A stretch of 64,000 nucleotides of DNA from a bacterium. GTDB taxonomy: Bacteria; Bacteroidota; Bacteroidia; Bacteroidales; Bacteroidaceae. The translations under genes were made by a program, and so were the position numbers. Below the pieces are notes generated by a model. It did not search any database. It was not told where the DNA came from and saw nothing but the letters and a program-made list of their open reading frames with translations. Location of the stretch: positions 2,586-66,585 of the forward strand of contig CAVHOL010000004.1 of assembly GCA_963637655.1 (NCBI GenBank), read 5' to 3'. Below, one piece after another: positions 5,613 to 64,000 of this stretch; position 1 is the stretch's first letter, and every line of letters starts with the position of its first letter.

Positions 5613-7310
5613 TCACGCCGCGCAACAGAACAGGACAATGATCTGTGCCGTGAAGATACGGAGGAACATGCTCAACGGGTAGACCGTGGAGTAGCCGACG
5701 GCAGGAGCCTCGCGCGAGCAGGTGGAGTTGGCGTAGGCCAGTGCTGGCGGGTCGGTATAGGTACCGGCAAACATACCCATGAGGGTGAAGTAGTTGATGT
5801 GGAACTTCATGCGCGCTATCGTGCCGACAACAAGTATCGGGATGATGGTGATGAGGAAACCGGTGTACACATATTTCAGTCCGTCGCCCTGCACTACGGT
5901 ATCCCAGAATCCCGTACCGGCCTTGATGCCGACACTGGCCAGGAAGAGCACAAGTCCTATCTCGCGCAACATCATGTTGGCCGACGTGGTGGTATAGGTC
6001 ACCAGTTTGATCTTGTAGCCGAAACGTCCGATAAGAATGGCGATGATCAGCGGTCCGCCGGCGATACCGAGCTTCAGAGGCACAGGCATTCCGGGGATGG
6101 CGATAGGCATGCTTCCGAAAATGATACCGATGATGATGCCGATGAAGATGGTGGCGATATTGGGCACATTGAGGTGGCGGGCGGTGTTGCCCATCATCTC
6201 GGCCACGCGGTTGACATTGTCCTCGGGGCCAACGACAAGCAGTTTGTCGCCCACCTGGAAGTGGTAGTTGCGGCTGGCGAACACGTCCATGCCCTGGCGC
6301 GACACACGCGTCACGGTCACGCCGTAGACGCTGGAGAAGTGCATCTTGCCGAGCGTCTTGCCGTTCATCGAAGGCTTGGTGATGACGATACGGCGGGAGA
6401 TCAGAGGCTTCTTCTCGTCCTGCTCTGCCCAAGGGGAGTCTATCTCCGGACCGATGAAGGCCTGGATGGCTTCGGCATCGGCCTCGGCGCAGACCACGAG
6501 CACATCGTCGCCCAGCTCAAGAACGGTCTTGCTGTTGGGGATGACGCTCTTGCCCTCGTGCTGCAGGCGCGAGCAGACGACATCGCGGTTGAGAAACTCT
6601 GCCACCTGGCCCATCGTACGGCCGGCCAGGAAGGAGTTGCTCACGCGCAAGTGCATCTGGTGGGGCTTGGCATGGGGATTTTCGGCCTCCTCCTCGGCGA
6701 GTTGTTCTTCCTCGTCGGCCAGCTTCACACGGGTGATGTAACGTATGGCGATAGTGGCGCCGATGATACCCAGTACACCGAGGGGGTAGGCGCAGGCATA
6801 GCCCGAGGCGATGGCCGGTATATTTCCATGGCGGACAGACTCAAGCGCCTCGTTGGCGGCACCGAGTCCAGGAGTGTTGGTGACCGCTCCGCACAGCGTG
6901 CCGACCATCATCGGAAGGTTGTCGGGGTTTGACGTATCGAAGAAAAGATAGTAGCAGGCAAACATCACGGCGATGTTGAGCAGGACGGCACTCACCGACA
7001 TGAGGTTGAGCGTGACACCACCCTTCTTGAAACTCTCGAAGAAGCCCGGTCCGACCTGAAGTCCGATACAGAACACAAACAGTATCAGACCGAAGTCCTG
7101 CAGAAATCCGAGAATGTTCACAGGGGCGGTGAAGCCGATATGGCCGGCCAGAATGCCGGCAAACAACACAAAGGACACACCGAGGGAGATACCGCCGAAC
7201 TTGATCTTGCCAAGCATCACGCCGACGGCGATGACGATGGCATAGAGCAGGGCGATATGGGCTACCGAGTCGGTGGTAGTAAACAGTTTAATAAACCAAT
7301 CCCATTCCAT
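5613..7310 (-). CDS. YidE/YbjL-type putative transporter (AAE family, two RCK_C/TrkA_C domains)
   Basis: The track ORF 5613..7637 was trimmed to Met110 ([44 protein letters not shown]), because the upstream 109 aa are Arg/Gly-rich junk. The protein has two membrane halves flanking soluble RCK_C-like segments. Confidence 0.85.
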
Positions 7311-12779: not shown

Positions 12780-14015
12780 TCATTTCTTCAGCCAGTCTGC
12801 TATACGGGCCATGGCTTCCTCGCAGTCTTCACGGTTGCCGAAGGCAGTGAGACGGATGTAGCCCTCGCCGCTGGGTCCGAAGCCGACTCCGGGGGTACAT
12901 ACGACACCCGCTCCGTAGAGCATCTGCTCGAAGAATTTCCAGCTCTCCACGCCACCGGGGGTCTTCACCCACAGATAGGGGGCGTTCTTTCCGCCGTATA
13001 CGCTGAGTCCGAGCTGGGTCAGGGCCTCGTACATGATCTCGGCATTGCCCATATAGTAGTCTATGGTCTGCTTGATCTGCTCTTTGCCTTCAGGCGTGTA
13101 GATGGCCTCGGCCGCACGCTGGGAGATATAGCTTGTACCGTTGAACTTGGTGCTTTGGCGACGGTCCCAAAGATGGTTGAGCTCCACACGCTGCTTGCCG
13201 TCGATGGTCACGGCCGTCAGCTCTTTCGGGATGATGGTATAACCGCAGCGGACGCCAGTGAAACCGGCCGTCTTGGAATAGCTGTGGAATTCGATGGCAC
13301 ACTTTCTTGCACCTTTGATTTCATAGATGGAGTGCGGCACATCGTCCTCGCGGATATAGGCTTCATAGGCAGCATCGTAGAGGATGAGGGTATCGTTCTT
13401 CAGCGCGTAGTTCACCCACTTGCGCAGTTCGTCTTTCGACAACACCGTACCCGTCGGGTTGTTGGGGTAGCACAGATAGATCATGTCTACGCGATGGTCG
13501 GGTATCTTGGGCGTGAAATTGTTTTCTGCCGTGCAGGGCATGTAGGTCACATTGCTCCATTTGCCGCCTTCGAGCGTTCCGGCGCGTCCGCACATCACGT
13601 TGGAGTCGATGTACACGGGGTAGATGGGATCGGTCACGCCGACACTGTTGTCCCATCTTACGATCTCGCCGATATTGCCCGTATCGCTCTTGGCACCGTC
13701 GTTGACAAACACTTCATTGGGATCGACATGCACTCCACGGGGAGCGAAGTCGTTTTTCACGATGGCCTCGCGCAGAAAGTCATAGCCGCGCTCGGGTCCG
13801 TAGCCGCGGAAGGTCGCCTTGACCGCCATCTCGTCGACAGCCTTGTGCATGGCCTCAATGACTGCGGGACAGAGCGGCTGCGTGACATCGCCAATGCCAA
13901 GACTGATCACGCGTACTCCGGGATGTGCCACCTTGAAGGCGTTCACCTTCTTGGCTATATCTGCAAACAGGTAATTGTTTGACAGCTTCAGATAGTGTTC
14001 GTTTACTAATGCCAT
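12780..14015 (-). CDS. dapL: LL-diaminopimelate aminotransferase
   Basis: 411 aa, MALVNEHYLKLSNNYLFADIAKKVNAFK..., the characteristic DapL N-terminus on an aminotransferase class I/II fold. Confidence 0.92.
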   Translation of the reverse strand: MALVNEHYLKLSNNYLFADIAKKVNAFKVAHPGVRVISLGIGDVTQPLCPAVIEAMHKAVDEMAVKATFRGYGPERGYDFLREAIVKNDFAPRGVHVDPNEVFVNDGAKSDTGNIGEIVRWDNSVGVTDPIYPVYIDSNVMCGRAGTLEGGKWSNVTYMPCTAENNFTPKIPDHRVDMIYLCYPNNPTGTVLSKDELRKWVNYALKNDTLILYDAAYEAYIREDDVPHSIYEIKGARKCAIEFHSYSKTAGFTGVRCGYTIIPKELTAVTIDGKQRVELNHLWDRRQSTKFNGTSYISQRAAEAIYTPEGKEQIKQTIDYYMGNAEIMYEALTQLGLSVYGGKNAPYLWVKTPGGVESWKFFEQMLYGAGVVCTPGVGFGPSGEGYIRLTAFGNREDCEEAMARIADWLKK

Positions 14016-53333: not shown

Positions 53334-54911
53334 TTATACTATTTTCCAGTCAATAAGTCCTTTACCCAAATTGTCCAATTCGATGGCAAGGGCAATGACT
53401 TTTCGCTTGTCTGCCATGAATGGCGCAGTATATTGATTTGTCATTATTTGATTTTCAGCGGCTGCGACTCCACCATTATTGGATAGCTTTAGTTCTATCA
53501 CATAGATGTATTTGAAGGTGAACACGACGATGTCTATCCTTCCGGTGGCAAGCATTCTTTCAACTTCCACTTTGAAGCCAATAGCTTTCATGATGGTGCT
53601 AATGATGAGACGGTAGCGCTCTTCCATGTCCATACTTGCCAATTTCTTGTTGCTGTACGGAACATCAGAAATCAAAGTCCTGAGGGTTGTCATGGCTTCC
53701 GCCACCTTGCCGTCTTGCATCATCTTCATCAGCAAACTTTGCGCACTGACAACATCCGATGTGGACATCCTTGTCAAGGCGGGAATCACAATCTTGTACA
53801 GCGCCTTGCGAACCTCATAGTTCGGGAAGCCCAAAGTATAGACCCCTTCCTCATAATCCTTGATGGTCAGATAGCCTGATTGATACAAGAAGAGTTCTGC
53901 TCCACCGTCGCATACATCAGAAGTTTCCAAGGAATCTCTGTCAATATAGCAATGGTCGAAATAGTCCAAACGCACTTCCATATCTTCCACAAACTTAGAC
54001 AAAAGAGACGTCGCTCCGGACGCAGCCCAATAGTTCTTCAGGTCCATGTCACTCAGAGCATTGACAAGACTGAAAGGATTGAAGACTTCCGCCATGTTTC
54101 TCCTGCTAAAGTGATAACCGTCATAATAATCCTTTAGCCGTGATAGGGTTTCCTCAGTATTCCATCCGTTTTCTATACCCAGCTGCTCAATTTCCGGCAT
54201 GAAATTGTCCGTAACCTCTTGCTTAGTAATGCCGCAGATGGCTGCAAATTGAGGTTCAAAACTGATGTTGCTGAGATTGTTGAGTACAGAGAACAAAGAG
54301 ATTTGGGTGAACTTCGTGATGCCCGTGATGAAGACGAAACGTTCATATACGTCATCAGCCTTGAGGATGGCAAAGACGCTGCGGTAGACTTCTGTGCAAC
54401 CTGCATGTTCAGATGTTCTCCAAGAATGTTGCAGAGGAGAGTCGTACTCGTCGATGAGAATGACCACTTGTTGTCCGGTCTGCTCGTAAGCAGCGGTAAT
54501 GATGGCGTCGAAGCGGGTATTAAGTGGAGCGCCTTCCTTTGTCGTAATGCCGTACTTTTCCTCGTATTTAGAAAAGGCGCTGTCCAAATAGGCACAAAGT
54601 TCGACGACAGAAGCTCCTCCACGGCTCATGTCAAAGCGTATGACAGGATAGCGAGTCCATTCCGTTTCCAAGTCCATTATCTTAAGTCCTTCAAACAGGC
54701 GTTTTTCCCCTTCAAAATAGGCTTGGAGCGTGTCGACCAACACCGACTTGCCGAAACGGCGCGGACGGCTCAGGTAATGGTACTTTTTCTTTCCCTTATG
54801 GGTAAGTTCCCATATCAAGTCGGTCTTGTCTACATAAAGGAAATTCTTTTCCCTTATCTCATAGAAAGACTGTATGCCTACGGGTAACGCTCTGTTGCTT
54901 AAATCTCTCAT
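53334..54911 (-). CDS. AAA-ATPase-like N-terminal domain fused to PD-(D/E)XK nuclease-like C-terminal domain
   Basis: 525 aa. The N-terminus has LPVGIQSFYEIREKNFLYVDKTDLI...YLSRPRRFGKS (Walker A) and VVILIDEYD (Walker B). The C-terminus has GRIDIVVFTFKYIYVIELKL (a D..E.K nuclease core). Confidence 0.82.
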   Translation of the reverse strand: MRDLSNRALPVGIQSFYEIREKNFLYVDKTDLIWELTHKGKKKYHYLSRPRRFGKSVLVDTLQAYFEGEKRLFEGLKIMDLETEWTRYPVIRFDMSRGGASVVELCAYLDSAFSKYEEKYGITTKEGAPLNTRFDAIITAAYEQTGQQVVILIDEYDSPLQHSWRTSEHAGCTEVYRSVFAILKADDVYERFVFITGITKFTQISLFSVLNNLSNISFEPQFAAICGITKQEVTDNFMPEIEQLGIENGWNTEETLSRLKDYYDGYHFSRRNMAEVFNPFSLVNALSDMDLKNYWAASGATSLLSKFVEDMEVRLDYFDHCYIDRDSLETSDVCDGGAELFLYQSGYLTIKDYEEGVYTLGFPNYEVRKALYKIVIPALTRMSTSDVVSAQSLLMKMMQDGKVAEAMTTLRTLISDVPYSNKKLASMDMEERYRLIISTIMKAIGFKVEVERMLATGRIDIVVFTFKYIYVIELKLSNNGGVAAAENQIMTNQYTAPFMADKRKVIALAIELDNLGKGLIDWKIV

Positions 54912-55331: not shown

Positions 55332-55339
55332 TATTTTTG
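55332..55339 (+). promoter_or_regulatory. candidate -7 box TATTTTTG directly upstream of the caspase gene
   Basis: Matches TAnnTTTG and ends 9 nt before the ATG at 55349, implying a very short or absent leader. Confidence 0.35.
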
Positions 55340-55348
55340 CGCTGACAT

Positions 55349-56281
55349 ATGAAGAATGGTACCTACTTCCCATATAAGGCAGTGTTTTTTCTGCTGGCCA
55401 TTGCCGTTTCTGTGGCCCACGTTTCCACAGAGGCCCAAACGAGACGGGCGCTGATTGTCGGGATTTCGCAGTATCCACAGACCGGCAGTGACGCTTGGGG
55501 AACCATTCATGGCGCCAACGATGCAGAACTGATTGTGCCTGTCATGAAAAGGCAAGGGTTCAGCATCGTCACGATATGCAATAGGGCTGCCACCGCAAAG
55601 AGGATAAGGCGAGGAATGGACACCCTCGTCTCTTCATGCAAGCCGGGCGACACCGTTTACCTCCACTTCTCTTGTCACGGCCAGCCCTATGAGGACATAG
55701 ACGGGGATGAGGATGACGGATGGGACGAATCGATTGTCCCCTACGATGCGCCAATGGTGTACCAAAAGGGGAAGTACGAGGGGGAGAATCATATCATAGA
55801 CGACGAGCTTCATACTTATTTCCAAAAGTTGAGAAGCAAGGTAGGCCGAAAAGGCCTGGTATGTGTTGTCATCGATGCCTGTCATGCAGGCAGCGCGTCA
55901 CGGGGTGAGGACGACATGGACGACGACGATGACGAGGTGTATGTCCGCGGTACAAAGAGAGGATTCAGTCCACGGGGAAAAGACTTTCGTCCACGAATCA
56001 ACGCCAAGGGACATTTCAAGATTCCGCAAGAAGCAGGACTTTCAGACATTCTCATACTGGAAGCCTGCCGCTCATACCAATCCAACTACGAAATCAAGCA
56101 ATCCGGAAAATATTACGGTCCTCTGTCATACTATACCAGTCAGGTCCTTTCCCGGCAACCGCTCGCCAAAAGTACAGACTGGGTGCGGGAAGTCAAACGA
56201 CTGATGAATGCAGACAGAAGACTGACAAGACAGAACATGGTATACGAGACGAGTTTGAAAATTCCAGAAAAACAATTGTAA
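55349..56281 (+). CDS. caspase family (peptidase C14) protein with N-terminal signal-like segment
   Basis: 310 aa with hydrophobic N-terminus AVFFLLAIAVSVAHV, RALIVGISQY, catalytic His in HFSCHG (His110, 55676-55678) and catalytic Cys in VIDACHAGS (Cys178, 55880-55882). Confidence 0.85.
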   Translation: MKNGTYFPYKAVFFLLAIAVSVAHVSTEAQTRRALIVGISQYPQTGSDAWGTIHGANDAELIVPVMKRQGFSIVTICNRAATAKRIRRGMDTLVSSCKPGDTVYLHFSCHGQPYEDIDGDEDDGWDESIVPYDAPMVYQKGKYEGENHIIDDELHTYFQKLRSKVGRKGLVCVVIDACHAGSASRGEDDMDDDDDEVYVRGTKRGFSPRGKDFRPRINAKGHFKIPQEAGLSDILILEACRSYQSNYEIKQSGKYYGPLSYYTSQVLSRQPLAKSTDWVREVKRLMNADRRLTRQNMVYETSLKIPEKQL

Positions 56282-56302
56282 AAGAAACCTAAAACAACCG
56301 GC

Positions 56303-56884
56303 ATGGCTATTTATCCGACAACACATACCCAGGAAGAAATGGAGGAGTTTGCTTCCGCACAATGGGACAAGACCCTTGCTTACCTGCAAGGGACATATTC
56401 ATTGTCTCGTCCCGACTGCGAAGACATCTTCCAGGAGGCATTCTTCATATTGTACACAAAGCTCATAGACGGCAACCTTACGCTGTCATCATCATTGTCA
56501 ACTTTCTTCTTGGGAATATGCAAGAACAAAGCGCATGAAAAGCTGCGTGCCAACGGCAGGAAGGAGCTGAACATCATAGACGAGTTTCCCCAAACCTCCA
56601 AGGACGAGTTTGAGGACGAGCGCATAGACCGTATCCTTGCCTTGGAGAACGACACTGAGCAGACCGCGGCAAGAAAAGACGCGGTTGTCCGTCAGATCGT
56701 CTCCGATCTTCCGTCACCATGCGACCATATTCTGTGGGGGTACTACCGTGACGGCTTCTCCATGAAGACGCTTGCCCTGATGCACAATTACAAGAGCGAA
56801 GGTTCTGTCAAGGTGACCAAGCACAGGTGTACAGAAAAATTCAAGGTTCGCTTTTTGGAAATGTCAAAACGCATCTTTGACTAA
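56303..56884 (+). CDS. ECF-like sigma-70 family RNA polymerase sigma factor
   Basis: 193 aa with region 2-like CEDIFQEAFFILYTKL ... FFLGICKNKAHEKLR and region 4-like DHILWGYYRDGFSMKTLALMHNYKSEGSVKVTKHRCTEKFK. It starts 21 nt after the caspase stop. Confidence 0.82.
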   Translation: MAIYPTTHTQEEMEEFASAQWDKTLAYLQGTYSLSRPDCEDIFQEAFFILYTKLIDGNLTLSSSLSTFFLGICKNKAHEKLRANGRKELNIIDEFPQTSKDEFEDERIDRILALENDTEQTAARKDAVVRQIVSDLPSPCDHILWGYYRDGFSMKTLALMHNYKSEGSVKVTKHRCTEKFKVRFLEMSKRIFD

Positions 56885-56996
56885 AAGCCGGCAATTAAAC
56901 AATTTGGTACGAATTGCACAACGAGAAAACATCTACCGGAGTTGTTGTCCGGTTTGTCTTCCCGGTTGTTTATCGTCTCACTAAAGCCCCATACTT

Positions 56997-57851
56997 ATGA
57001 TAAAGGACATCAACAACATAGACCAAACACTTTACAGAGAATACGACCGCATCGTCGCCTACCTCAAAGGGAAAATGTCCCAAGAAGAGGAAGAAAATTT
57101 TCTGAAGGATTTGGAAGGCAATGCCAAACTGAAAGAGAAGGCCGTCATTATAGCCCGGCTTGTGAAAGGTCTGAAAGAGGTCGGACGGGAGAAAGACCGC
57201 AATATCATAGATGTATTCCTTGCTTCGAATGTGGAAGACGTAGAGAACGCCTCGAGGGTGGCTGTCGGATACTGTCCAATGGAATACGCAAACTATGACA
57301 TGTTCCCATCCAAAGCGGAGGAAGAGGCATCTATGGGTACAATACCGGCCCAAGCATGGCATACCGCAGCATCAAGAGTTTCAGCTTCAAGAGTGATACC
57401 CAAGAGGAAAAAGCCCGTCAAAAAATGGCTGGCCGTCGCAGCATCTCTTGTGCTCATCGTATGGCTTGGAGTGGAATACGATATATACAGGACTACAACC
57501 GGACTTGGTGAACAGTACGGCGACGCATTCATGTCGGGCGTGGTAGTCCGTGGCGCAGAAAACCAGTCGGAAACGTCAAAGAAGCTGGCAAAACTGTTTG
57601 CCGACGTCAAAGAAGACAAGAACATCGGTGACGCCATCCATGACCTGTCCATCTGTTGGGAATTGTCCACCTTGGAAACCTTCAACGACTACACCGACTA
57701 CTCCGCAGAAATCGGTTGGAACCTCGCCATCGCCTACCTAAAAGACAATGACAGAAAGGGAGCCAGAAAGGTGCTCGAAAAACTGGCGAAGACTACAGAG
57801 AACGGGTCGGCAGTCAACAAGAAGGCAAAAGAACTGCTTTCAAAAATGTAG
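56997..57851 (+). CDS. single-pass membrane protein, anti-sigma-factor-like (cytoplasmic N-domain, TM, periplasmic helical/TPR-like C-domain)
   Basis: 284 aa. The N-terminus YREYDRIVAYLKGKMSQEEEENFLKDLEGN resembles Bacteroidetes anti-sigma N-termini, the TM is KKWLAVAASLVLIVWLGV, and the position is immediately after a sigma gene. The function is inferred from architecture only. Confidence 0.55.
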   Translation: MIKDINNIDQTLYREYDRIVAYLKGKMSQEEEENFLKDLEGNAKLKEKAVIIARLVKGLKEVGREKDRNIIDVFLASNVEDVENASRVAVGYCPMEYANYDMFPSKAEEEASMGTIPAQAWHTAASRVSASRVIPKRKKPVKKWLAVAASLVLIVWLGVEYDIYRTTTGLGEQYGDAFMSGVVVRGAENQSETSKKLAKLFADVKEDKNIGDAIHDLSICWELSTLETFNDYTDYSAEIGWNLAIAYLKDNDRKGARKVLEKLAKTTENGSAVNKKAKELLSKM

Positions 57852-57900
57852 CGTACACCAAGCACTGATTGTACAAACGGCAAGATGTATTTAAAGGCAC

Positions 57901-59556
57901 ATGAAAATTCGACACAGAGCATTACTTTCCTTTATCATGTTACTTTTCTCGTTCTATGCAAATGGGCAGATGCAAAACGAAAAACTTACAGCCGAGCTAT
58001 ATGAAAAGGAATTTCCGGTCCTTCGCTCATTCAAGAACAAACGGCTTGCTGAAATAGAAGCGCTGAGAGACCGGATGTTGCTTGTTCCGCCAAAAACGGA
58101 AAAAGGAGCAAAACTATGGAGAGCGTTCCTTGACTTTAACCGGAATAGCCTCATTTCCTTCCCGCTTGACACATACGACAAGGATGACGAGGAGTATTGG
58201 AACCGGATTTCGGCTACACTTATTCCTTTGTTCTACGTCTGCTGCGACCAGCTTGAAGGCCGTGAAAAAGAAGCCTACAACAATGCCTTGACACTGAAGA
58301 ATTTCCTGTATTATGGCTACAGACACAAAGAGATAAGGCAAACCACATGGAAAGACGTCCAAGCCATGCTCGACGAGGACGATGTAGCCATCGAACTGCG
58401 TGTGATGCCGGATGAGGCCCTCATTTTGAGAAAAGGGACTGACAGTCCTGTCAGCTTCCCGATAGATTCTGTCCTTGTGGAGAAATTGGGAATGTTCAAA
58501 GGCGTTGACGCAGTGGAAATAAGCGAGATGTATTCACCTGAGGGAGTACTGTCCAAATTGTGGACGGCCCTTTCTCCTTCTATTGCAGGGGCAAAACACA
58601 TATACCTTTCTGCATCCCACTTTCTCTGCAATTTCAACTATGGCGCCATACCGACAATCAACGGATCAACCGTCGATGATGATTATGACTTTCATTATCT
58701 CGCATCCACAGAAGACATCCGCTCCGTAAAGGATAGAAAAGAGACATCCGAATATAAGTCTGCCATACTCTTCGGCGACATAACTTATGACATGAACGAG
58801 GAGAAAATGAAGGCATCTGCGTCGAGACAAGACTGCGGGCAAAAACCAGTATGGGACTTGACAAGAGGAATGGATGAGGCGACACGCGGCAAATTGCTTC
58901 CATTGCAACATTCCAAAGAAGAAATCCTGGCAATCAACAACTTGCTCCGTGAAAAAGGTATTGAAGTCATGACATTTTCAGCGGATAGTGCAACCGAAGC
59001 GACGTTCAAGACTGCCATCAGACACCACCCTGCAATCATTCACCTGTCCACACACGGTTTCATGCTGGCACCGGTGTACTGCGATTCTGACGAAGCTCCA
59101 ATTTATCCGGAGTCACAAGCTGCGTCGAAATATGCCACCTGCATGCTCAAATCCGGACTTTTGCTTTCTGGCGCTAGCCGGGCATGGAATGGCAAAACGC
59201 CAATAGAAGGTGTAGAGGACGGAATACTTACCACAAAAGAACTGCTTGAAATGGATCTTCGCGGCACAAAGTTGGCTGTACTCTCCGCTTGCAAGACCGG
59301 ATTGGGCAATGACACCAATCTCACAGGACTCTCCTTCGGACCGCAACATGCCCTGAAGACAAAAGGAGTTGAGCAGATTGTGATGAGCCTATGGATGGTT
59401 GACGATGCTGCTACAACGTTACTGATGAAACGTTTTTATGAAGCGCTTCTCACAGGTATTGGAGTTAAACCTGCACTAAAACAAGCCCAACGGAGATTGA
59501 AAGAAGAAGGTTACAACGACCCTTATTTTTGGGCCTCTTTCATCGTATTTGAGTAG
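57901..59556 (+). CDS. CHAT domain protease-like protein with N-terminal signal-like segment
   Basis: 551 aa with N-terminus MKIRHRALLSFIMLLFSFYANGQ. The C-terminal CHAT hallmarks are IIHLSTHGF (His385, 59053-59055), LAVLSACKTG (Cys464, 59290-59292), SLWMVDDAATTLLMKRFY and DPYFWASFIVFE. Confidence 0.87.
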   Translation: MKIRHRALLSFIMLLFSFYANGQMQNEKLTAELYEKEFPVLRSFKNKRLAEIEALRDRMLLVPPKTEKGAKLWRAFLDFNRNSLISFPLDTYDKDDEEYWNRISATLIPLFYVCCDQLEGREKEAYNNALTLKNFLYYGYRHKEIRQTTWKDVQAMLDEDDVAIELRVMPDEALILRKGTDSPVSFPIDSVLVEKLGMFKGVDAVEISEMYSPEGVLSKLWTALSPSIAGAKHIYLSASHFLCNFNYGAIPTINGSTVDDDYDFHYLASTEDIRSVKDRKETSEYKSAILFGDITYDMNEEKMKASASRQDCGQKPVWDLTRGMDEATRGKLLPLQHSKEEILAINNLLREKGIEVMTFSADSATEATFKTAIRHHPAIIHLSTHGFMLAPVYCDSDEAPIYPESQAASKYATCMLKSGLLLSGASRAWNGKTPIEGVEDGILTTKELLEMDLRGTKLAVLSACKTGLGNDTNLTGLSFGPQHALKTKGVEQIVMSLWMVDDAATTLLMKRFYEALLTGIGVKPALKQAQRRLKEEGYNDPYFWASFIVFE

Positions 59557-59636: not shown

Positions 59637-60682
59637 TTATGGGAACAACCTCCTTTCTACGCGAAACATGACATTATCGGCCTTTTCTGCCATCCACGTG
59701 TTCAGAGGATTACATACAAAAGCCCGTATCTTGTCGAGCAAGATGCAAACGAAATAAAAGCCAAGTGTAAAAGCCACCATACATACACATGCGAGAAAAG
59801 GGTCAAGAGTGTTGGCCATCCATTTCAGTGGGGTGAAGAAAACGTAACTACCGAAAGGTCCTGCATGAATTATATATACGGCCAATACAGATGAGGAAAT
59901 CCAATTGACGACCTTAGATTGCAAGGTCCACTTCTTTGCCCAACAAAAGAAAAGCACGCAGGCAACTATTACAGCAGGACTGTTGTATCGCAAGGAAAAT
60001 ATTATGGCAAAGGGAGGAAATACCGTCTTTATCGTATGCATTACAAGCATAAGCGCTGAGAATGCAAACCATTTACCCCCCCGAAAAATTTAGTTTCTTT
60101 AACAGAAGATATAAACATGCCAAGATAGTAGATTACAAAGAAATGTATTGCACTATAGCCATCAATTGACACTTGGGTAGCTTGATGCATATAACCAATA
60201 TATGTATCCATCACTGTCAATGCGGCCAACGAAAGAACCCTCTGCCGTTGATTCTGATTTTCAAAAGCCGTATTAAGCAAAGGGGCAAAAAGGTAAAGTG
60301 CAAAGTAAGCCACCATAAACCAATAACCTGACCCTGAAAGAGCGAAAACCGTTTTCTGCGGAATATCCATCACCGGTCCGTCAAGAAACACAAACGCCAG
60401 AATTGTCAAGACAAGCATCCAAAATGCACATTGAGTATAGAGGTTGAAGAAACCTCGCCACGACTGTTTTATACGAAAGTAACCGCTGATCATCACAAAA
60501 CAGTTTACTGCCGTTATACTCATGCACATCAAGAGTATTCGGATATCGTTAGCCCAGCCAAAATCAGCGGAGTGAAGTTTGGGATAACAGGTCTGCAACA
60601 CGTGATTGGTTACTACGCCCAGCATACAAAATATGCGGAGCAATTCAAAATTCGACTGTCTTACTTTTGCATTCATGCACAT
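59637..60682 (-). pseudogene. acyltransferase family 3 (OafA/YrhL-like) gene interrupted by a frameshift at a G7 tract
   Basis: Two overlapping ORFs, 60041..60682 (MCMNAKVRQSNFELLRIFCMLGVVTNHV..., polytopic) and 59637..60050, lie in adjacent frames. The second frame is open back through the C7 (plus-strand) run at 60076-60082. G8 or G5 would give one 348-aa polytopic protein. Confidence 0.75.
60076..60082. repeat. C7/G7 homopolymer at the acyltransferase frameshift point
   Basis: Read directly: atttaCCCCCCCgaaaa. Confidence 0.9.
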
Positions 60683-60936
60683 TCAATCTATATATCATAT
60701 CTCGGGTAGTTTCCGTTTTTATCTTGCAGTTTCCTTTCGGCCCAAGCTAATTTATAGAACCTCCCTATATTCATTTGTGCCAACGTACCAAAAGAGCAAG
60801 TTGCACGAAAGCTATTGCAAAGATAAACATAAATGAAACATCTAAAGATTTTTCGCGAAAAATAATCAAGAACAAGCGTTTCCGTTGTTAACCTTTCTTC
60901 CATCATAGCCATAAAGGGTAAACGAACAACAAAAAT

Positions 60937-61119
60937 ATGAAAGATACAATGGAAAATGTGACGGGATGCCTGATGTGGCTCTACGGAATTGTCAGCCAAA
61001 TTATGACGCTGGTGTTCTTCATTCAATACTGCAAGACAGATTCTATACTGCAGATCATCTTCCTTGACTCCTGGCTTTCGGAGTTGAAGGGTCTGCTGTG
61101 GATATTCTTTATTTGGTGA
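60937..61119 (+). CDS. possible small two-TM membrane protein (60 aa)
   Basis: The ORF MKDTMENVTGCLMWLYGIVSQIMTLVFFIQYCKTDSILQIIFLDSWLSELKGLLWIFFIW lies in an otherwise empty 530-bp gap. No homology was recognised. Confidence 0.25.
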   Translation: MKDTMENVTGCLMWLYGIVSQIMTLVFFIQYCKTDSILQIIFLDSWLSELKGLLWIFFIW

Positions 61120-61215
61120 AAAAAAGCGGGATTACTGTTAACCTCTATCGTCTTTCCTGCATATAAGAGAAAAAGACCAATATTCATAAAACCAATATTC
61201 TATTAATACAATGTT

Positions 61216-62280
61216 ATGAGAAAAGTGTTTGGATACCTGTTTGCCCTGTTTGCCGTAGTTTCCTTTCCGAGTATTGTGGACGTCTATCCCAGTACAGCGG
61301 CAATTATCGGGAGCGCCATGGCATGGGCGGTCATGTCTGTCATCCCGGCTTATTTTCTGCTTCGCAACTCCGGGAAGAAGAAAGACGGCCAGGCCGTCGA
61401 GGGAACGGAACGAAAGAAGTCGCCCGTGAAAAAAGTCCTCAAGATCCTGCTTTCTGCAATTGGCGTCTTTTTGCTCTGCGGAATGATATTCAGCCAGATT
61501 GTGAAGGCGGTATATACGCCTTACAAACACGACAAGCAAAGAACCGAATTTGCACAGTCGGTGGAACGCGCAGACAGAGAATGCCCCATTCAAGTCGCAT
61601 TGGGCAAAGGCGCAATTACCGGCATCAAGTTGGAAGACGGCTATGTCACTTACTACGGCACCTACGACTCGGATTTCACCCATATCCTGAACAAAATAGA
61701 CGATGAGCAGAAAAAAGAATGTATTCTGATGAGTATGCTTTGTATCAATGCCCAGAACGGAAATCAAGGTGATGTCTTGATGAATTCGCTTGAAAAATAC
61801 GGATACGGTATAAGATTCGTCATTACGCAGTCCGGTGCAGGAAAGTTTGACTTTAGGGCTTCAACCGAAGAAATAAAGGCATTAAGGGAGAAATTCCGGC
61901 TCAATCCTCATGAAGCATTGCTCAATGGCTTGTCTATCAGCATTGAAGCAGTACGTGCCTCTCTGCCTCTGAAAATCGATGAAGGGATGCAGGTCACAGA
62001 TTATAGTCTGGAGGATGAGAACATCGTCATTGGCGTAGAGTGCGATGAAGACATCTACTCCATAGACGAAATATCCTCAAAAAGTGAATGGTTCAAAGAC
62101 TCCATGTTTGAAGATGGATTGAGCGATCCGTCGAGCAAAGCGCTACTTGACCTGTGCAAGGTCAGCCATACCGGCATCAAATACATTTTTACGGGCAAAC
62201 GCTCCCGCAAATCCACCGACATCTTGCTATCGAGCGACGAAATACGGCAAAAAGTACAGACGCCATCCCCAATTCAATAA
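61216..62280 (+). CDS. hypothetical membrane protein with three N-terminal TM helices and an internally duplicated soluble domain
   Basis: 354 aa. Two roughly 100-aa units share the pattern P.(Q/K)(V/I)..G..(I/V)T...ED..V ... GI(R/K)(F/Y)(V/I)(I/F)T ... S.(E/D)EI(K/R). No family was recognised. Confidence 0.6.
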   Translation: MRKVFGYLFALFAVVSFPSIVDVYPSTAAIIGSAMAWAVMSVIPAYFLLRNSGKKKDGQAVEGTERKKSPVKKVLKILLSAIGVFLLCGMIFSQIVKAVYTPYKHDKQRTEFAQSVERADRECPIQVALGKGAITGIKLEDGYVTYYGTYDSDFTHILNKIDDEQKKECILMSMLCINAQNGNQGDVLMNSLEKYGYGIRFVITQSGAGKFDFRASTEEIKALREKFRLNPHEALLNGLSISIEAVRASLPLKIDEGMQVTDYSLEDENIVIGVECDEDIYSIDEISSKSEWFKDSMFEDGLSDPSSKALLDLCKVSHTGIKYIFTGKRSRKSTDILLSSDEIRQKVQTPSPIQ

Positions 62281-62289
62281 GAAAGAAAT

Positions 62290-64000
62290 ATGAAACAGTT
62301 TATCTTGATTCTCCTGACATTCGCCGGACTCACCTGCATGGCCCAAAACCGCCCCGAGAGCTACAACTTCAAGCGCGGCGTCGAGGCCGTACAAAACGAG
62401 AAGAACGAGGAAGCTCTGGAATACTTCAACAAAGACATCGACGAGAATCCGAAAAGCGGCTACTCCTACTCATGGATAGCATGGCTGCGCCTTAACAGCG
62501 AAGAATACGGCAGGGCACTGACAGCAGCCGACCTGGCCATCAGGCATCTGCCCAAGAAGGATACAGAGTACATGAGGTTCACCTACAACACAAGGGCAAG
62601 CGTGTACTGTCATCTTGCCGACACCATCAAAGCCATCAATGACTACACCGCCGCCATCAAGGCAGATCCCCAGGAGACAAGCGCCTACAAGTATCGCGCA
62701 CAGATCTACTACGAGCAGGGAAAGTACGACCTGGCCGATGCCGATTACGACAAGATAATCGAACTGGATCCCGGTAGCGTTTTCGGCTACATGGGCAAGG
62801 GCCGCAATGCAAATGCCCAAAAGCGCTGGGACGACGCCATCAAACTCTTTGACTATGTAGAAAAGCTGGCGAGTGACTATACGTATGTCTACACTTTCCG
62901 GGCCACGGCCTATATCGGGAAAGAGAAATGGGACGAGGCAACTGATGACCTTGTGACGGTGCTTACTTTAAAATGGGACAGACAAGCCATGGACATGATC
63001 ACCCAACTGAAAGAGCCTGCATTCACCATGATGGTCTCCAAACTGAAAGTGCAGTCGGCCAAGATGCCCAACGACTCGAAATGGCCTTACCTGACAGGCG
63101 CAATGTATGAAGCGAACGGCAACTACGCGAAAGCCATCGGATACTATACGGAGGCCAATGGCAGAGAGACGTCACCGACCATGTACTACAGGATTGCGAT
63201 GTGCCAGCTTGGGATGGGCGAATACGATGCAGGACTTCGCTATATCGACCAGGCGTTGAGCATGGACAGCACCTCGTACGCCTACCTCTCATACCTGTCC
63301 TGCAAGGCCGACCTGTATAGCGAAAAGGGAGATTTGCAACAAGCCATTGCCGTATGGGACAAGGCACTTGCGCAAAAACCGGATGATGGACCCAGCTACG
63401 CTCAGCGCGGCAGCCTCAAGGATTATGCCGGAGACATAGATGGGGCTGTCGAAGATCTGACTATGGCTGTCACGCTCGACCCTACAGACTCCTATTCATA
63501 TAGTTTCCGTGGCAGCATCTATCAGAGGCGTGGACAGAAAGACCTTGCGGAATCAGATTTCAGAAAAGTCATCGAGATAGAAGATACACACGAAAAATAC
63601 CAGTGCATATACTACGCCTACCACTGGCTCGGACAAGACAACAAGGCCATTGCCGCCATGGACAGCATCATAGCACGCGATGCCACAAGTGCCGGCACCT
63701 ACTACGATGCAGCCTGTCTCTACTCACTGATGGAAAACAAGGCGAAAGCGCTGGAGTATCTGGAGACGTCCCTTCAGAAAGGATATGTGGGCTTCACGCA
63801 CATGGGGTATGACCATGACATGGACTTCCTCCGTGCCACCGAAGAATATAAAGCCTTGGTGGCCAAATACAAGAACGCAAAGGAGAAGAATTCTGCAAAC
63901 CGCACATCGTCCGATGTAGCCGATGAGCAGCAAGATGATCTGGTGACGACCGAAATACCTTTTGTCAAGGAGGACGGGGTCTGCAAGGTGAAGTGCAAAA
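62290..64000 (+). CDS. secreted TPR-repeat protein, 3' end beyond the window; the last residues resemble the start of a retropepsin-like aspartyl protease domain
   Basis: Absent from the ORF track because no stop lies in the window. I translated 62290-64000 codon by codon and found no stop. It starts MKQFILILLTFAGLTCMAQN (signal), has many 34-aa TPR-like units (e.g. AYKYRAQIYYEQGKYDLADADYDKIIELDP) and ends ...TEIPFVKEDGVCKVKCK. Confidence 0.85.
   Translation, partial: MKQFILILLTFAGLTCMAQNRPESYNFKRGVEAVQNEKNEEALEYFNKDIDENPKSGYSYSWIAWLRLNSEEYGRALTAADLAIRHLPKKDTEYMRFTYNTRASVYCHLADTIKAINDYTAAIKADPQETSAYKYRAQIYYEQGKYDLADADYDKIIELDPGSVFGYMGKGRNANAQKRWDDAIKLFDYVEKLASDYTYVYTFRATAYIGKEKWDEATDDLVTVLTLKWDRQAMDMITQLKEPAFTMMVSKLKVQSAKMPNDSKWPYLTGAMYEANGNYAKAIGYYTEANGRETSPTMYYRIAMCQLGMGEYDAGLRYIDQALSMDSTSYAYLSYLSCKADLYSEKGDLQQAIAVWDKALAQKPDDGPSYAQRGSLKDYAGDIDGAVEDLTMAVTLDPTDSYSYSFRGSIYQRRGQKDLAESDFRKVIEIEDTHEKYQCIYYAYHWLGQDNKAIAAMDSIIARDATSAGTYYDAACLYSLMENKAKALEYLETSLQKGYVGFTHMGYDHDMDFLRATEEYKALVAKYKNAKEKNSANRTSSDVADEQQDDLVTTEIPFVKEDGVCKVKCK

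Follow-up and report, generated by a model that had tools for sequence, protein, structure and literature searches.

A module of two caspase-fold proteases, an ECF-type sigma factor and a candidate anti-sigma, with a predicted local regulon, in Prevotella-type bacteria

Why would two caspase-fold proteases that look exported be encoded on one strand, with short gaps to the genes of an extracytoplasmic function (ECF)-type sigma factor and a single-pass membrane protein? The arrangement occurs in a 64-kb stretch of a Bacteroidaceae metagenome contig, the sequence that we studied; we call the whole stretch the window, and all coordinates are window positions. An earlier note on this DNA had proposed that the four genes form a protease-gated sigma switch in the envelope. 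We found that they recur together in an island that is typical of Prevotellaceae and conserved in Prevotella-type gut and rumen bacteria, and that genes next to them are preceded by a shared bipartite motif. The island may serve envelope signalling, with a sensor/regulator operon that controls the output genes through protease-gated release of the sigma factor; we give this reading about an even chance. The features of the module, with the source of each assignment, are:

55332-55339, + strand: TAnnTTTG box TATTTTTG, a promoter box of the Bacteroidota housekeeping type, 9 nt before the ATG of the C14 gene
55349-56281, + strand: C14 peptidase, open reading frame (ORF) of 310 aa (ORF list, Pfam)
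56303-56884, + strand: ECF-type factor of the sigma-70 family, ORF of 193 aa (ORF list, TIGR02937)
56997-57851, + strand: single-pass membrane protein, candidate anti-sigma, ORF of 284 aa (ORF list, AlphaFold2)
57901-59556, + strand: CHAT protease, ORF of 551 aa (ORF list, Pfam)

The gaps between the four genes are 21, 112 and 49 nt, and TATTTTTG is the sole TAnnTTTG box of the module that is both intergenic and on the + strand. The region in which the module sits has a lowered G+C content, 0.42-0.49 against ~0.55. The ORF list, Pfam, NCBIfam and a box scan returned the four ORFs, their gaps and domains, the catalytic dyads and the single box as the earlier note had listed them.

Do these genes belong together, or are they chance neighbours? 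We assembled 94 loci, 14 from species-representative genomes and 80 from metagenomes, all gathered through the 284-aa protein; the metagenome scan used alignment A4, as alignment A3 was too divergent. The loci were scored by hidden Markov models built from the module proteins, and the denominators below are loci with enough flank. The sigma factor gene lay directly 5′ of the 284-aa gene in 68/68 loci and the C14 gene directly 5′ of the sigma factor gene in 47/53. CHAT was present in 39 of the 43 loci with downstream flank, as one gene in 26 of them, two in 10 and three in 3. A reverse search from C14 homologs recovered the same module. The earlier note had suggested following the neighbourhood across Bacteroidota, and these counts indicate that the quartet recurs and is not a chance adjacency. 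The extent that it had given to the module also holds for the four conserved genes; what it had missed are the variation in CHAT copy number and TPR length and the probable outputs at 60885-62280. The C14 peptidase, the sigma factor and the candidate anti-sigma are the constant core, and the CHAT component is variable. One of the carriers is a cultured strain, Prevotella lacticifex JCM 34664.

Nearly all of these loci come from Prevotellaceae or other Bacteroidales and several of the metagenome contigs are near-duplicates, so that the locus counts overstate the number of independent events. Shared ancestry contributes to the counts, and one could argue that the genes are adjacent without a shared function and were kept so by descent in one family. 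We consider this very improbable. The gene order is unchanged down to 31% identity of the 284-aa protein (locus L012), the proteins of diverged loci being 31-45% identical, and the flanking genes differ completely between loci while the core stays; this divergence together with the changing contexts excludes mere synteny. The gene spacing is operon-like, and at a distant locus from Saprospiraceae (L014) a TPR-CHAT gene is found together with a sigma factor gene and one for a homolog of the 284-aa protein. We judge it highly probable that the four genes work as a single unit centred on the sigma/anti-sigma pair.

To get clues on what this unit does, we examined its proteins in turn. The 193-aa protein matched the sigma70-ECF model TIGR02937 over residues 32-182 with 48.3 bits (cut-off 42.9), which confirms its earlier description as an ECF-type sigma factor. 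Its match to Sigma70_r2 was weak (18.8 bits vs 24), and none of the specific ECF subgroup models of NCBIfam scored above cut-off. The protein fits the ECF factors (group IV) in having sigma-2 and sigma-4 as its sole regions and in its size class of ~170-220 aa. The cognate regulator expected of this group has its counterpart in the gene of the 284-aa family, which stood next to the sigma factor gene in each of the 68 loci.

Is the 284-aa protein an anti-sigma? It belongs to a large family without a Pfam domain, for which one database gave 570 matches and another 666 clusters (50% identity); the best 150 family representatives are 75-430 aa long and none of them is fused to CHAT. Taken alone, the protein gave only weak TPR_19 and FimV C-terminal matches, at residues 236-283 (Pfam, NCBIfam). 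AlphaFold2 folded the N-domain (residues 10-90, modelled alone) into four helices, 10-23, 29-41, 43-75 and 79-90, with a pLDDT of 79, and left the variable linker at 91-141 disordered. There is only one hydrophobic span, at ~144-163, with four Lys/Arg before it and one after, a charge distribution that places the N-terminus in the cytoplasm. The span is followed by a conserved juxtamembrane segment, a low-confidence stretch at 180-188 (pLDDT <50) and, on the periplasmic side, a confidently modelled five-helix TPR-like domain at 192-283, which superposes weakly on the TPR domains of Fis1 and YbgF (Foldseek with the full-length model, where small TPR domains were the only matches). The layout in the earlier note, namely a soluble N-domain, one transmembrane helix and a TPR-like C-domain, is as described and is the topology expected of a single-pass anti-sigma; the matches to anti-sigma domains are weak but repeated. 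The commonest weak Pfam match of the family was zf-HC2, found in 9 of 48 diverse members (best E 0.004), and two anti-sigma models of NCBIfam were matched by 4 + 4 of the 48, second to a compositional Nif11 match. Among the 18 Foldseek matches of the N-domain, all with E >1, the best superpositions were on the anti-sigmas RsiW (5wuq) and RslA (3hug); for RsiW the target-normalised TM-score was 0.63, with an rmsd of 1.3 Å over 48 columns. The zinc motif H-x3-C-x2-C was absent, the aligned positions holding Phe35 and no Cys (alignments A1 and A2). These matches are consistent, if weakly, with an anti-sigma domain of the non-zinc type, and the 284-aa protein would then be the one to bind the sigma factor. 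Nothing meaningful came out of PDB sequence searches with profiles of the 284-aa protein and of its N-domain, or with the sigma factor or CHAT sequences, and no relative of the 284-aa protein was found among the viral contigs of IMG/VR. Some family members (P0208, P0275, P0290, P0297-P0300 and P0309) carry the N-terminal helical domain in two to three tandem copies ahead of the membrane helix, which is unusual for an anti-sigma domain.

Which kind of protease does the first gene encode? The 310-aa protein matched Peptidase_C14 of Pfam (PF00656; 5.9e-19, 69.1 bits, cut-off 21.4 bits), and its dyad of His110 (HFSCHG) and Cys178 (DACHAG) is kept in 11/11 homologs. The closest solved structures are metacaspases, namely yeast Yca1 (4f6o, 1.3e-13), Arabidopsis MC4 and Trypanosoma MCA2, and the acidic segment EDIDGDEDDGWDE (DGDEDDGxDE) lies within the Yca1 alignment. 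In all homologs an acidic run and then an invariant Arg-Gly (YVRGTK) follow downstream of the catalytic Cys; in caspases this position is that of the intersubunit linker. Judging by its sequence, the C14 protein is metacaspase-like. Metacaspases and orthocaspases cleave after Arg or Lys, and the metacaspase-type motifs, with the acidic segment aligned to Yca1, suggest the same specificity for the C14 protein.

The fourth gene encodes a protein that matched CHAT of Pfam (PF12770) over residues 218-549 (9.2e-44, 150.5 bits, cut-off 24 bits). Its dyad of His385 (STHG) and Cys464 (SACKTG) is present in 12/12 alignable homologs and is invariant also in alignment A5. The window protein is a short form without a detectable TPR array and represents a genuine subfamily of ~550 aa. 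Across loci the CHAT proteins range from 551 to 1203 aa, mainly by the length of the TPR array, the TPR-bearing paralogs being 741-1203 aa long. The gene occurs in one to three copies per locus, sometimes upstream of the core, and a TPR-only protein is often encoded ahead of it. CHAT proteins are 26-65% identical to that of the window, C14 proteins 45-84%. A search with the CHAT family profile matched only TPR proteins, because TPR columns dominated the profile. In the closest relative, L003, HtpG is 98% identical, the 284-aa protein 71% identical and CHAT decayed to a C-terminal remnant (5964-6247 of that locus). This comparison indicates that the module changes far more quickly than the genes around it and that CHAT can be lost.

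To place the two proteases relative to the membrane, we used rule-based calls of export and topology, which consider charge, hydrophobicity and the cleavage-site pattern. Both N-termini are of the signal type, with two to three Lys/Arg, 12-13 residues of hydrophobic core and a cleavage site of small residues right before a Gln (TEA/Q and ANG/Q), and the pattern recurs among the C14 homologs. Gln right after the signal peptidase I site is typical of Bacteroidota. Both proteases look exported, and the intact dyads and signal-like N-termini that the earlier note had read in them are borne out by the homologs and by this analysis.

If the proteases face the periplasm, where might they cut? One position in the 284-aa protein stands out:

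57549-57554, + strand: codons of Arg185-Gly186, a near-invariant pair in the variable periplasmic linker of the 284-aa protein and a candidate site-1 cleavage site

Arg185 was found in 85/86 and Gly186 in 83/86 non-identical family members, while the six residues before the pair and the five after it vary freely. The pair lies ~24 residues outside the membrane, in the segment to which AlphaFold gives no structure. The Saprospiraceae homolog (26% identity; ITRGND) retains the pair. It is lost only in locus L037, where the adjacent caspase gene is of another type, and it resembles the conserved hydrophobic-x-Arg-Gly motif within the C14 protein itself. An invariant and exposed Arg185 fits the P1 preference of metacaspase-type enzymes. 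A separase-type consensus, (S/D/E)xExxR, around Arg185 was considered and rejected, as P4 is not acidic. We also rejected assigning the site to C14 by the presence or absence of the C14 gene, since Arg-Gly persists where C14 is missing.

What would a released sigma factor transcribe? A shared sequence was first spotted upstream of a recurring gene for a 354-aa protein, outside the coordinates of the module. From 66 unique sites its consensus is TTGTTAACCTTT-N13-CATAAAGGGTAAA, with a T-rich stretch upstream. The ~0.95 Mb of related loci (L001-L099) contain 86 sites, against ~1 expected. GTTAACC is separated from CAT by 16 nt in 75 of the 86 and by 15 nt in 9; when only the right box was used as an anchor, a perfect left box accompanied it in 48 of 169 occurrences. 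The strict motif occurs once in the window (0.00 expected) and nowhere else in it, a short distance downstream of the module:

60885-60922, + strand: motif TTGTTAACCTTT-N13-CATAAAGGGTAAA, candidate sigma promoter (strict match at 60887)
60937-61119, + strand: hydrophobic ORF of 60 aa, the first predicted target, starting 50 nt after GTTAACC (gene also in the public record)
61135-61172, + strand: second motif copy, in which GTTAACC (at 61137) is followed after 16 nt by the degenerate box CATATAAGAG
61216-62280, + strand: membrane protein of 354 aa with three hydrophobic spans and an uncharacterised domain of ~260 aa (no Pfam match)
62290-64000, + strand, running off the window end: exported protein of 683 aa with TPR and a retropepsin-like domain (Asp_protease_2, gag-asp_proteas), 10 nt after the 354-aa gene

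At the position orthologous to the second copy, before the same gene, L003, L007 and L055 have the full motif. Of the sites, 65 are located downstream of the core, with 63 on the module strand; 10 lie upstream of it, most facing away; and of five inside the core four precede the anti-sigma gene. At nearly all sites a start codon follows 42-88 nt after GTTAACC. As in ECF promoters, there is an AAC in the left box and frequently a GTC in the right one.

We also considered that the motif is an operator for a dimeric transcription factor, or a hairpin in RNA or DNA, and that the real targets of the sigma factor lie elsewhere. Two properties weigh for this and against a promoter: the boxes form an imperfect inverted repeat (TTAACCTTT / AAAGGGTAA) that pairs at 8/9 positions and would suit a dimeric regulator, and the second box, with ~13 conserved bases, is longer than a typical -10 element. 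Such an operator or hairpin would have to live with a spacing that is fixed over a spacer of unconserved sequence, with the constant short distance to start codons, and with sites that are confined to the surroundings of the module and show a strand bias of 63 to 2. No housekeeping TAnnTTTG box was found on the + strand before the target genes of the window, and no transcription factor gene besides the sigma factor is conserved in the loci. We hold the operator or hairpin to be unlikely. The fixed spacing, the variable spacer, the AAC, the frequent GTC and the missing housekeeping box make it the simplest view that the motif is the promoter of the module's sigma factor; TTGTTAACCTTT-N13-CATAAAGGGTAAA is most likely recognised by it and would define a local regulon.

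The predicted regulon consists of small membrane and exported proteins, and Pfam gave no meaningful match for the motif-preceded genes. The 354-aa family is the commonest predicted target, with the motif before it at 19 sites in 14 loci, and in at least 16 loci its gene stands downstream of the CHAT genes. Hydrophobic peptides of 49-64 aa, in several families, are also preceded by the motif; they include the 60-aa ORF, which has a hydrophobic span and whose homolog in L061 stands behind the same motif. Exported Thr/Gly/Tyr-rich repeat proteins with regularly spaced Arg (example GTSTTSRTDMFGNTTTTHRDAYGR) follow the motif at 14 sites in 12 loci and could be substrates of an Arg-specific periplasmic protease; examples are in L002 (- strand, with the motif at 13006-13034) and at L040 10311, L035 11328 and L085 17359. 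The motif also precedes a family of ~430 aa. This uncharacterised protein (N-terminus MGIK..F..LFGHSD) recurs beside the module on either side and in either orientation, with the motif before it in several loci; it was seen in L001 (9588-10883), L002, L003 (7528-8814), L013, L081, L085, L091, L092 and L094, and beyond the window end in the public record. The TPR-aspartic-protease gene follows the 354-aa gene also in L007 and L031. It is probably co-transcribed with the predicted sigma target and would be a third protease type in the island.

How is the sensor operon itself transcribed? Most related loci have a TAnnTTTG box of the same type as the window 15-40 nt 5′ of the C14 start, and an ECF-type autoregulatory promoter at this place was rejected on account of this housekeeping box. 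In a subset of loci (L006, L031, L033, L040 and L086) two to three direct repeats AAGTTCGGAGAAA, ~21 nt apart, are located 30-110 nt 5′ of the C14 start, shortly before the TAnnTTTG box that serves the sensor operon; a regulator may bind to them, and the window has no clear counterpart.

Put together, these features suggest the following course of events. The sensor operon would be one transcription unit, read from the TAnnTTTG promoter and probably constitutive, and at rest the anti-sigma would keep the sigma factor at the membrane. A periplasmic cue would then activate a caspase-fold protease, the likely sensors being the variable TPR arrays of CHAT or the TPR-only protein. The active protease would cut the anti-sigma in the exposed juxtamembrane linker, most plausibly after the invariant Arg185, and an intramembrane site-2 protease and cytoplasmic proteases would clear the remainder. 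The freed sigma factor would turn on the adjacent motif-bearing genes, whose products are small membrane and exported proteins; those of the window would be the 60-aa and 354-aa genes, with probable read-through into the TPR-aspartic-protease gene. As far as sequence goes, CHAT could act either directly or by way of C14, as a cascade.

Several observations weigh against this course of events. The matches of the N-domain to anti-sigma domains are all statistically weak (E ≥0.004 in Pfam and >1 in Foldseek). In front of the sensor operon there is a housekeeping-type promoter and usually no bipartite motif, so that the autoregulation typical of ECF factors is not seen. In loci L001, L081 and L094 sigma factor, anti-sigma candidate and motif persist with no C14 or CHAT gene nearby, and the CHAT gene of the closest relative, L003, is decayed; the proteases are therefore not indispensable in cis. 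Arg-Gly is retained in loci without C14, and consequently the site does not identify the acting protease, which could equally be CHAT; the invariant pair could instead have a structural role.

The protease-less loci also suit a different division of labour, in which the proteases act downstream of the sigma switch, as constitutive periplasmic processing enzymes or effectors that mature or degrade sigma-induced exported proteins such as the Arg-punctuated repeat proteins, and the anti-sigma is inactivated by another cue. Many predicted targets are exported low-complexity repeats with regular Arg, as would suit an Arg-specific metacaspase-like enzyme, and the output operon of the window contributes a further exported protease, the TPR and retropepsin-like one. 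Yet the proteases are linked to the sensor operon, where genes often overlap or nearly touch, and not to the target families, which vary between loci; and the invariant Arg-Gly in the exposed linker, together with a precedent for the fusion of CHAT to an anti-sigma (DdvA, below), points to the anti-sigma as the substrate. We regard a downstream role as rather improbable and prefer proteases that gate the anti-sigma, a reasonable proposal of the earlier note that the conserved gene order supports as well. A more elaborate form of this gating would be a cascade, in which TPR-CHAT proteins are interchangeable sensors and initiators that activate a constant, Arg-specific, metacaspase-like executioner; the latter would cut a non-zinc anti-sigma at Arg-Gly, and the released sigma factor would fire a dedicated promoter before an exchangeable set of genes, encoding exported repeat proteins and small membrane peptides, with envelope-level defence or altruistic death as a conceivable output. 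We put the complete cascade forward as speculation, with the chances clearly against it.

Is such a system already known? The earlier note, made without database searches, knew of no described system that combines these genes; as a claim that nothing similar is described this is too strong, as DdvA of Myxococcus xanthus resembles it (PMC11506125). In the DdvA-DdvS pair, DdvA is an anti-sigma with one membrane pass that is fused to a periplasmic TPR-CHAT, whose active site faces the linker of the partner protomer; activation by CHAT autoproteolysis and then RseP was proposed and is unproven (PMC11506125). DdvA was called the only characterised anti-sigma with TPR-CHAT by its authors, who found relatives only in Myxococcota and in one Comamonas (PMC11506125). 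Like it, the module would have an ECF sigma factor restrained by an anti-sigma that crosses the membrane once and bears a small helical domain in the cytoplasm, a caspase-fold CHAT with a His-Cys dyad in the periplasm and a flexible juxtamembrane linker as the proposed cut site. Unlike in DdvA, CHAT is here a separate secreted protein of variable length in one to three copies, the anti-sigma has a TPR-like domain of ~100 aa as its own periplasmic part and lacks the zinc ligands in its anti-sigma domain, and a metacaspase-like C14 peptidase is the second protease and the most constant partner. The host is a member of Bacteroidota, and the predicted outputs are small membrane and exported proteins rather than CBASS or CRISPR-Cas. 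The module would work like a split DdvA and is not a member of the DdvA family.

The earlier note had also drawn an analogy to Craspase. The type III-E Craspase locus comprises Cas7-11, the TPR-CHAT protease Csx29, Csx30, Csx31 and an RpoE-like sigma factor (PMC10028731). A TPR-CHAT protease linked to an ECF-like sigma factor and its restrainer, with proteolysis as the switch (here a proposed one), is common to both, and the comparison is no more than an analogy. Craspase is cytoplasmic and RNA-guided, whereas here there are no cas genes and no array, and CHAT has signal peptides. The 193-aa protein scored 22.6 bits with the III-E sigma model (cut-off 100 bits), six tested proteins had no CRISPR match in PADLOC, and 40-64 kb of the window contained no tandem repeats. 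The module fails every membership feature of type III-E Craspase that we examined, and PADLOC gave no membership in a defence system beyond a generic caspase model.

Proteolysis of anti-sigmas is known from RseA/DegS/RseP, RsiW/PrsW, RsiP and RsiV with signal peptidase, and the autoproteolysis of RsgI. As in these classical cases, the anti-sigma would here be cut outside the membrane and then within it to release an ECF sigma factor. The known site-1 enzymes are a serine protease, a metalloprotease or signal peptidase, or the anti-sigma cleaves itself, whereas the present candidates are cysteine proteases of the caspase fold whose genes belong to the operon itself. With metacaspases and orthocaspases (C14B) the C14 protein shares the HxSxHG and DxCHxG motifs and the acidic segment that aligns to Yca1; it differs in being small (~280 aa mature), in bearing a signal peptide and being predicted periplasmic, in its own acidic/Arg-Gly insert and in its tie to a sigma/anti-sigma pair. 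Neighbourhoods of the EACC2 type with caspase, ECF sigma factor and TPR were described by Kaur et al. 2021, who proposed that peptidase activation is coupled to transcription (PMC8195603). Their caspases carry the EACC2 adaptor and variable C-terminal sensor domains, whereas the C14 protein is a bare exported catalytic domain; it scored 21.6 bits with an EACC1-type caspase model (cut-off 140 bits), and no DUF1822 was detected. Literature searches on orthocaspases or metacaspases with anti-sigmas, on TPR-CHAT with sigma factors and on Prevotella ECF promoters returned no description of the module, and the main text of the ECF classification of Casas-Pastor 2021 contains no mention of CHAT or caspase.

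The proposed regulated proteolysis of an ECF anti-sigma is of a known kind, and the involvement of CHAT was foreshadowed by DdvA; the split architecture and the metacaspase partner are new. A large unannotated family of candidate anti-sigmas (the 666 clusters), together with a predicted promoter and regulon, is likewise new and directly testable. If the proteases gate the anti-sigma, they would be the first caspase-family proteases dedicated to site-1 cleavage and encoded as separate genes, the DdvA model would extend well past Myxococcota, and the metacaspase-like and CHAT proteases of bacteria, for which few substrates are known, would gain a defined one. Prevotellaceae dominate many human gut and rumen communities and, to our knowledge, their signalling systems are almost unstudied. 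The pair of sigma factor and promoter could also serve as an orthogonal expression switch in Bacteroidota.

A few observations concern the origin of the contigs and the neighbours of the module. The bins of L001, L002, L003, L008 and L013 are labelled Akkermansia muciniphila, Lachnospiraceae or 'bacterium', and the contigs are Prevotella-like (for example, HtpG 98% identical to that of the window); these are probably binning errors. Directly upstream of the module, on the - strand at 53334-54911, is a gene with AAA-ATPase_like and PDDEXK_9 domains. A paralog (35% identity) abuts C14 in L002 in the opposite orientation, and L003 does not have the gene, which probably belongs to an abundant Bacteroidales family and not to the module. 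Between the CHAT gene and the first motif an Acyl_transf_3 gene (59637-60682, - strand) occupies the stretch of lowest G+C (0.42); this gene is missing from L003. The window copy is broken into two frames, while a matching public record (GCA_963655685.1, contig CAVKGH010000001.1) has a poly-C run at ~60076-60083 that is longer by one C, and its Acyl_transf_3 gene is one unbroken frame for 346 aa; the difference could be a sequencing error or reflect a phase-variable tract.

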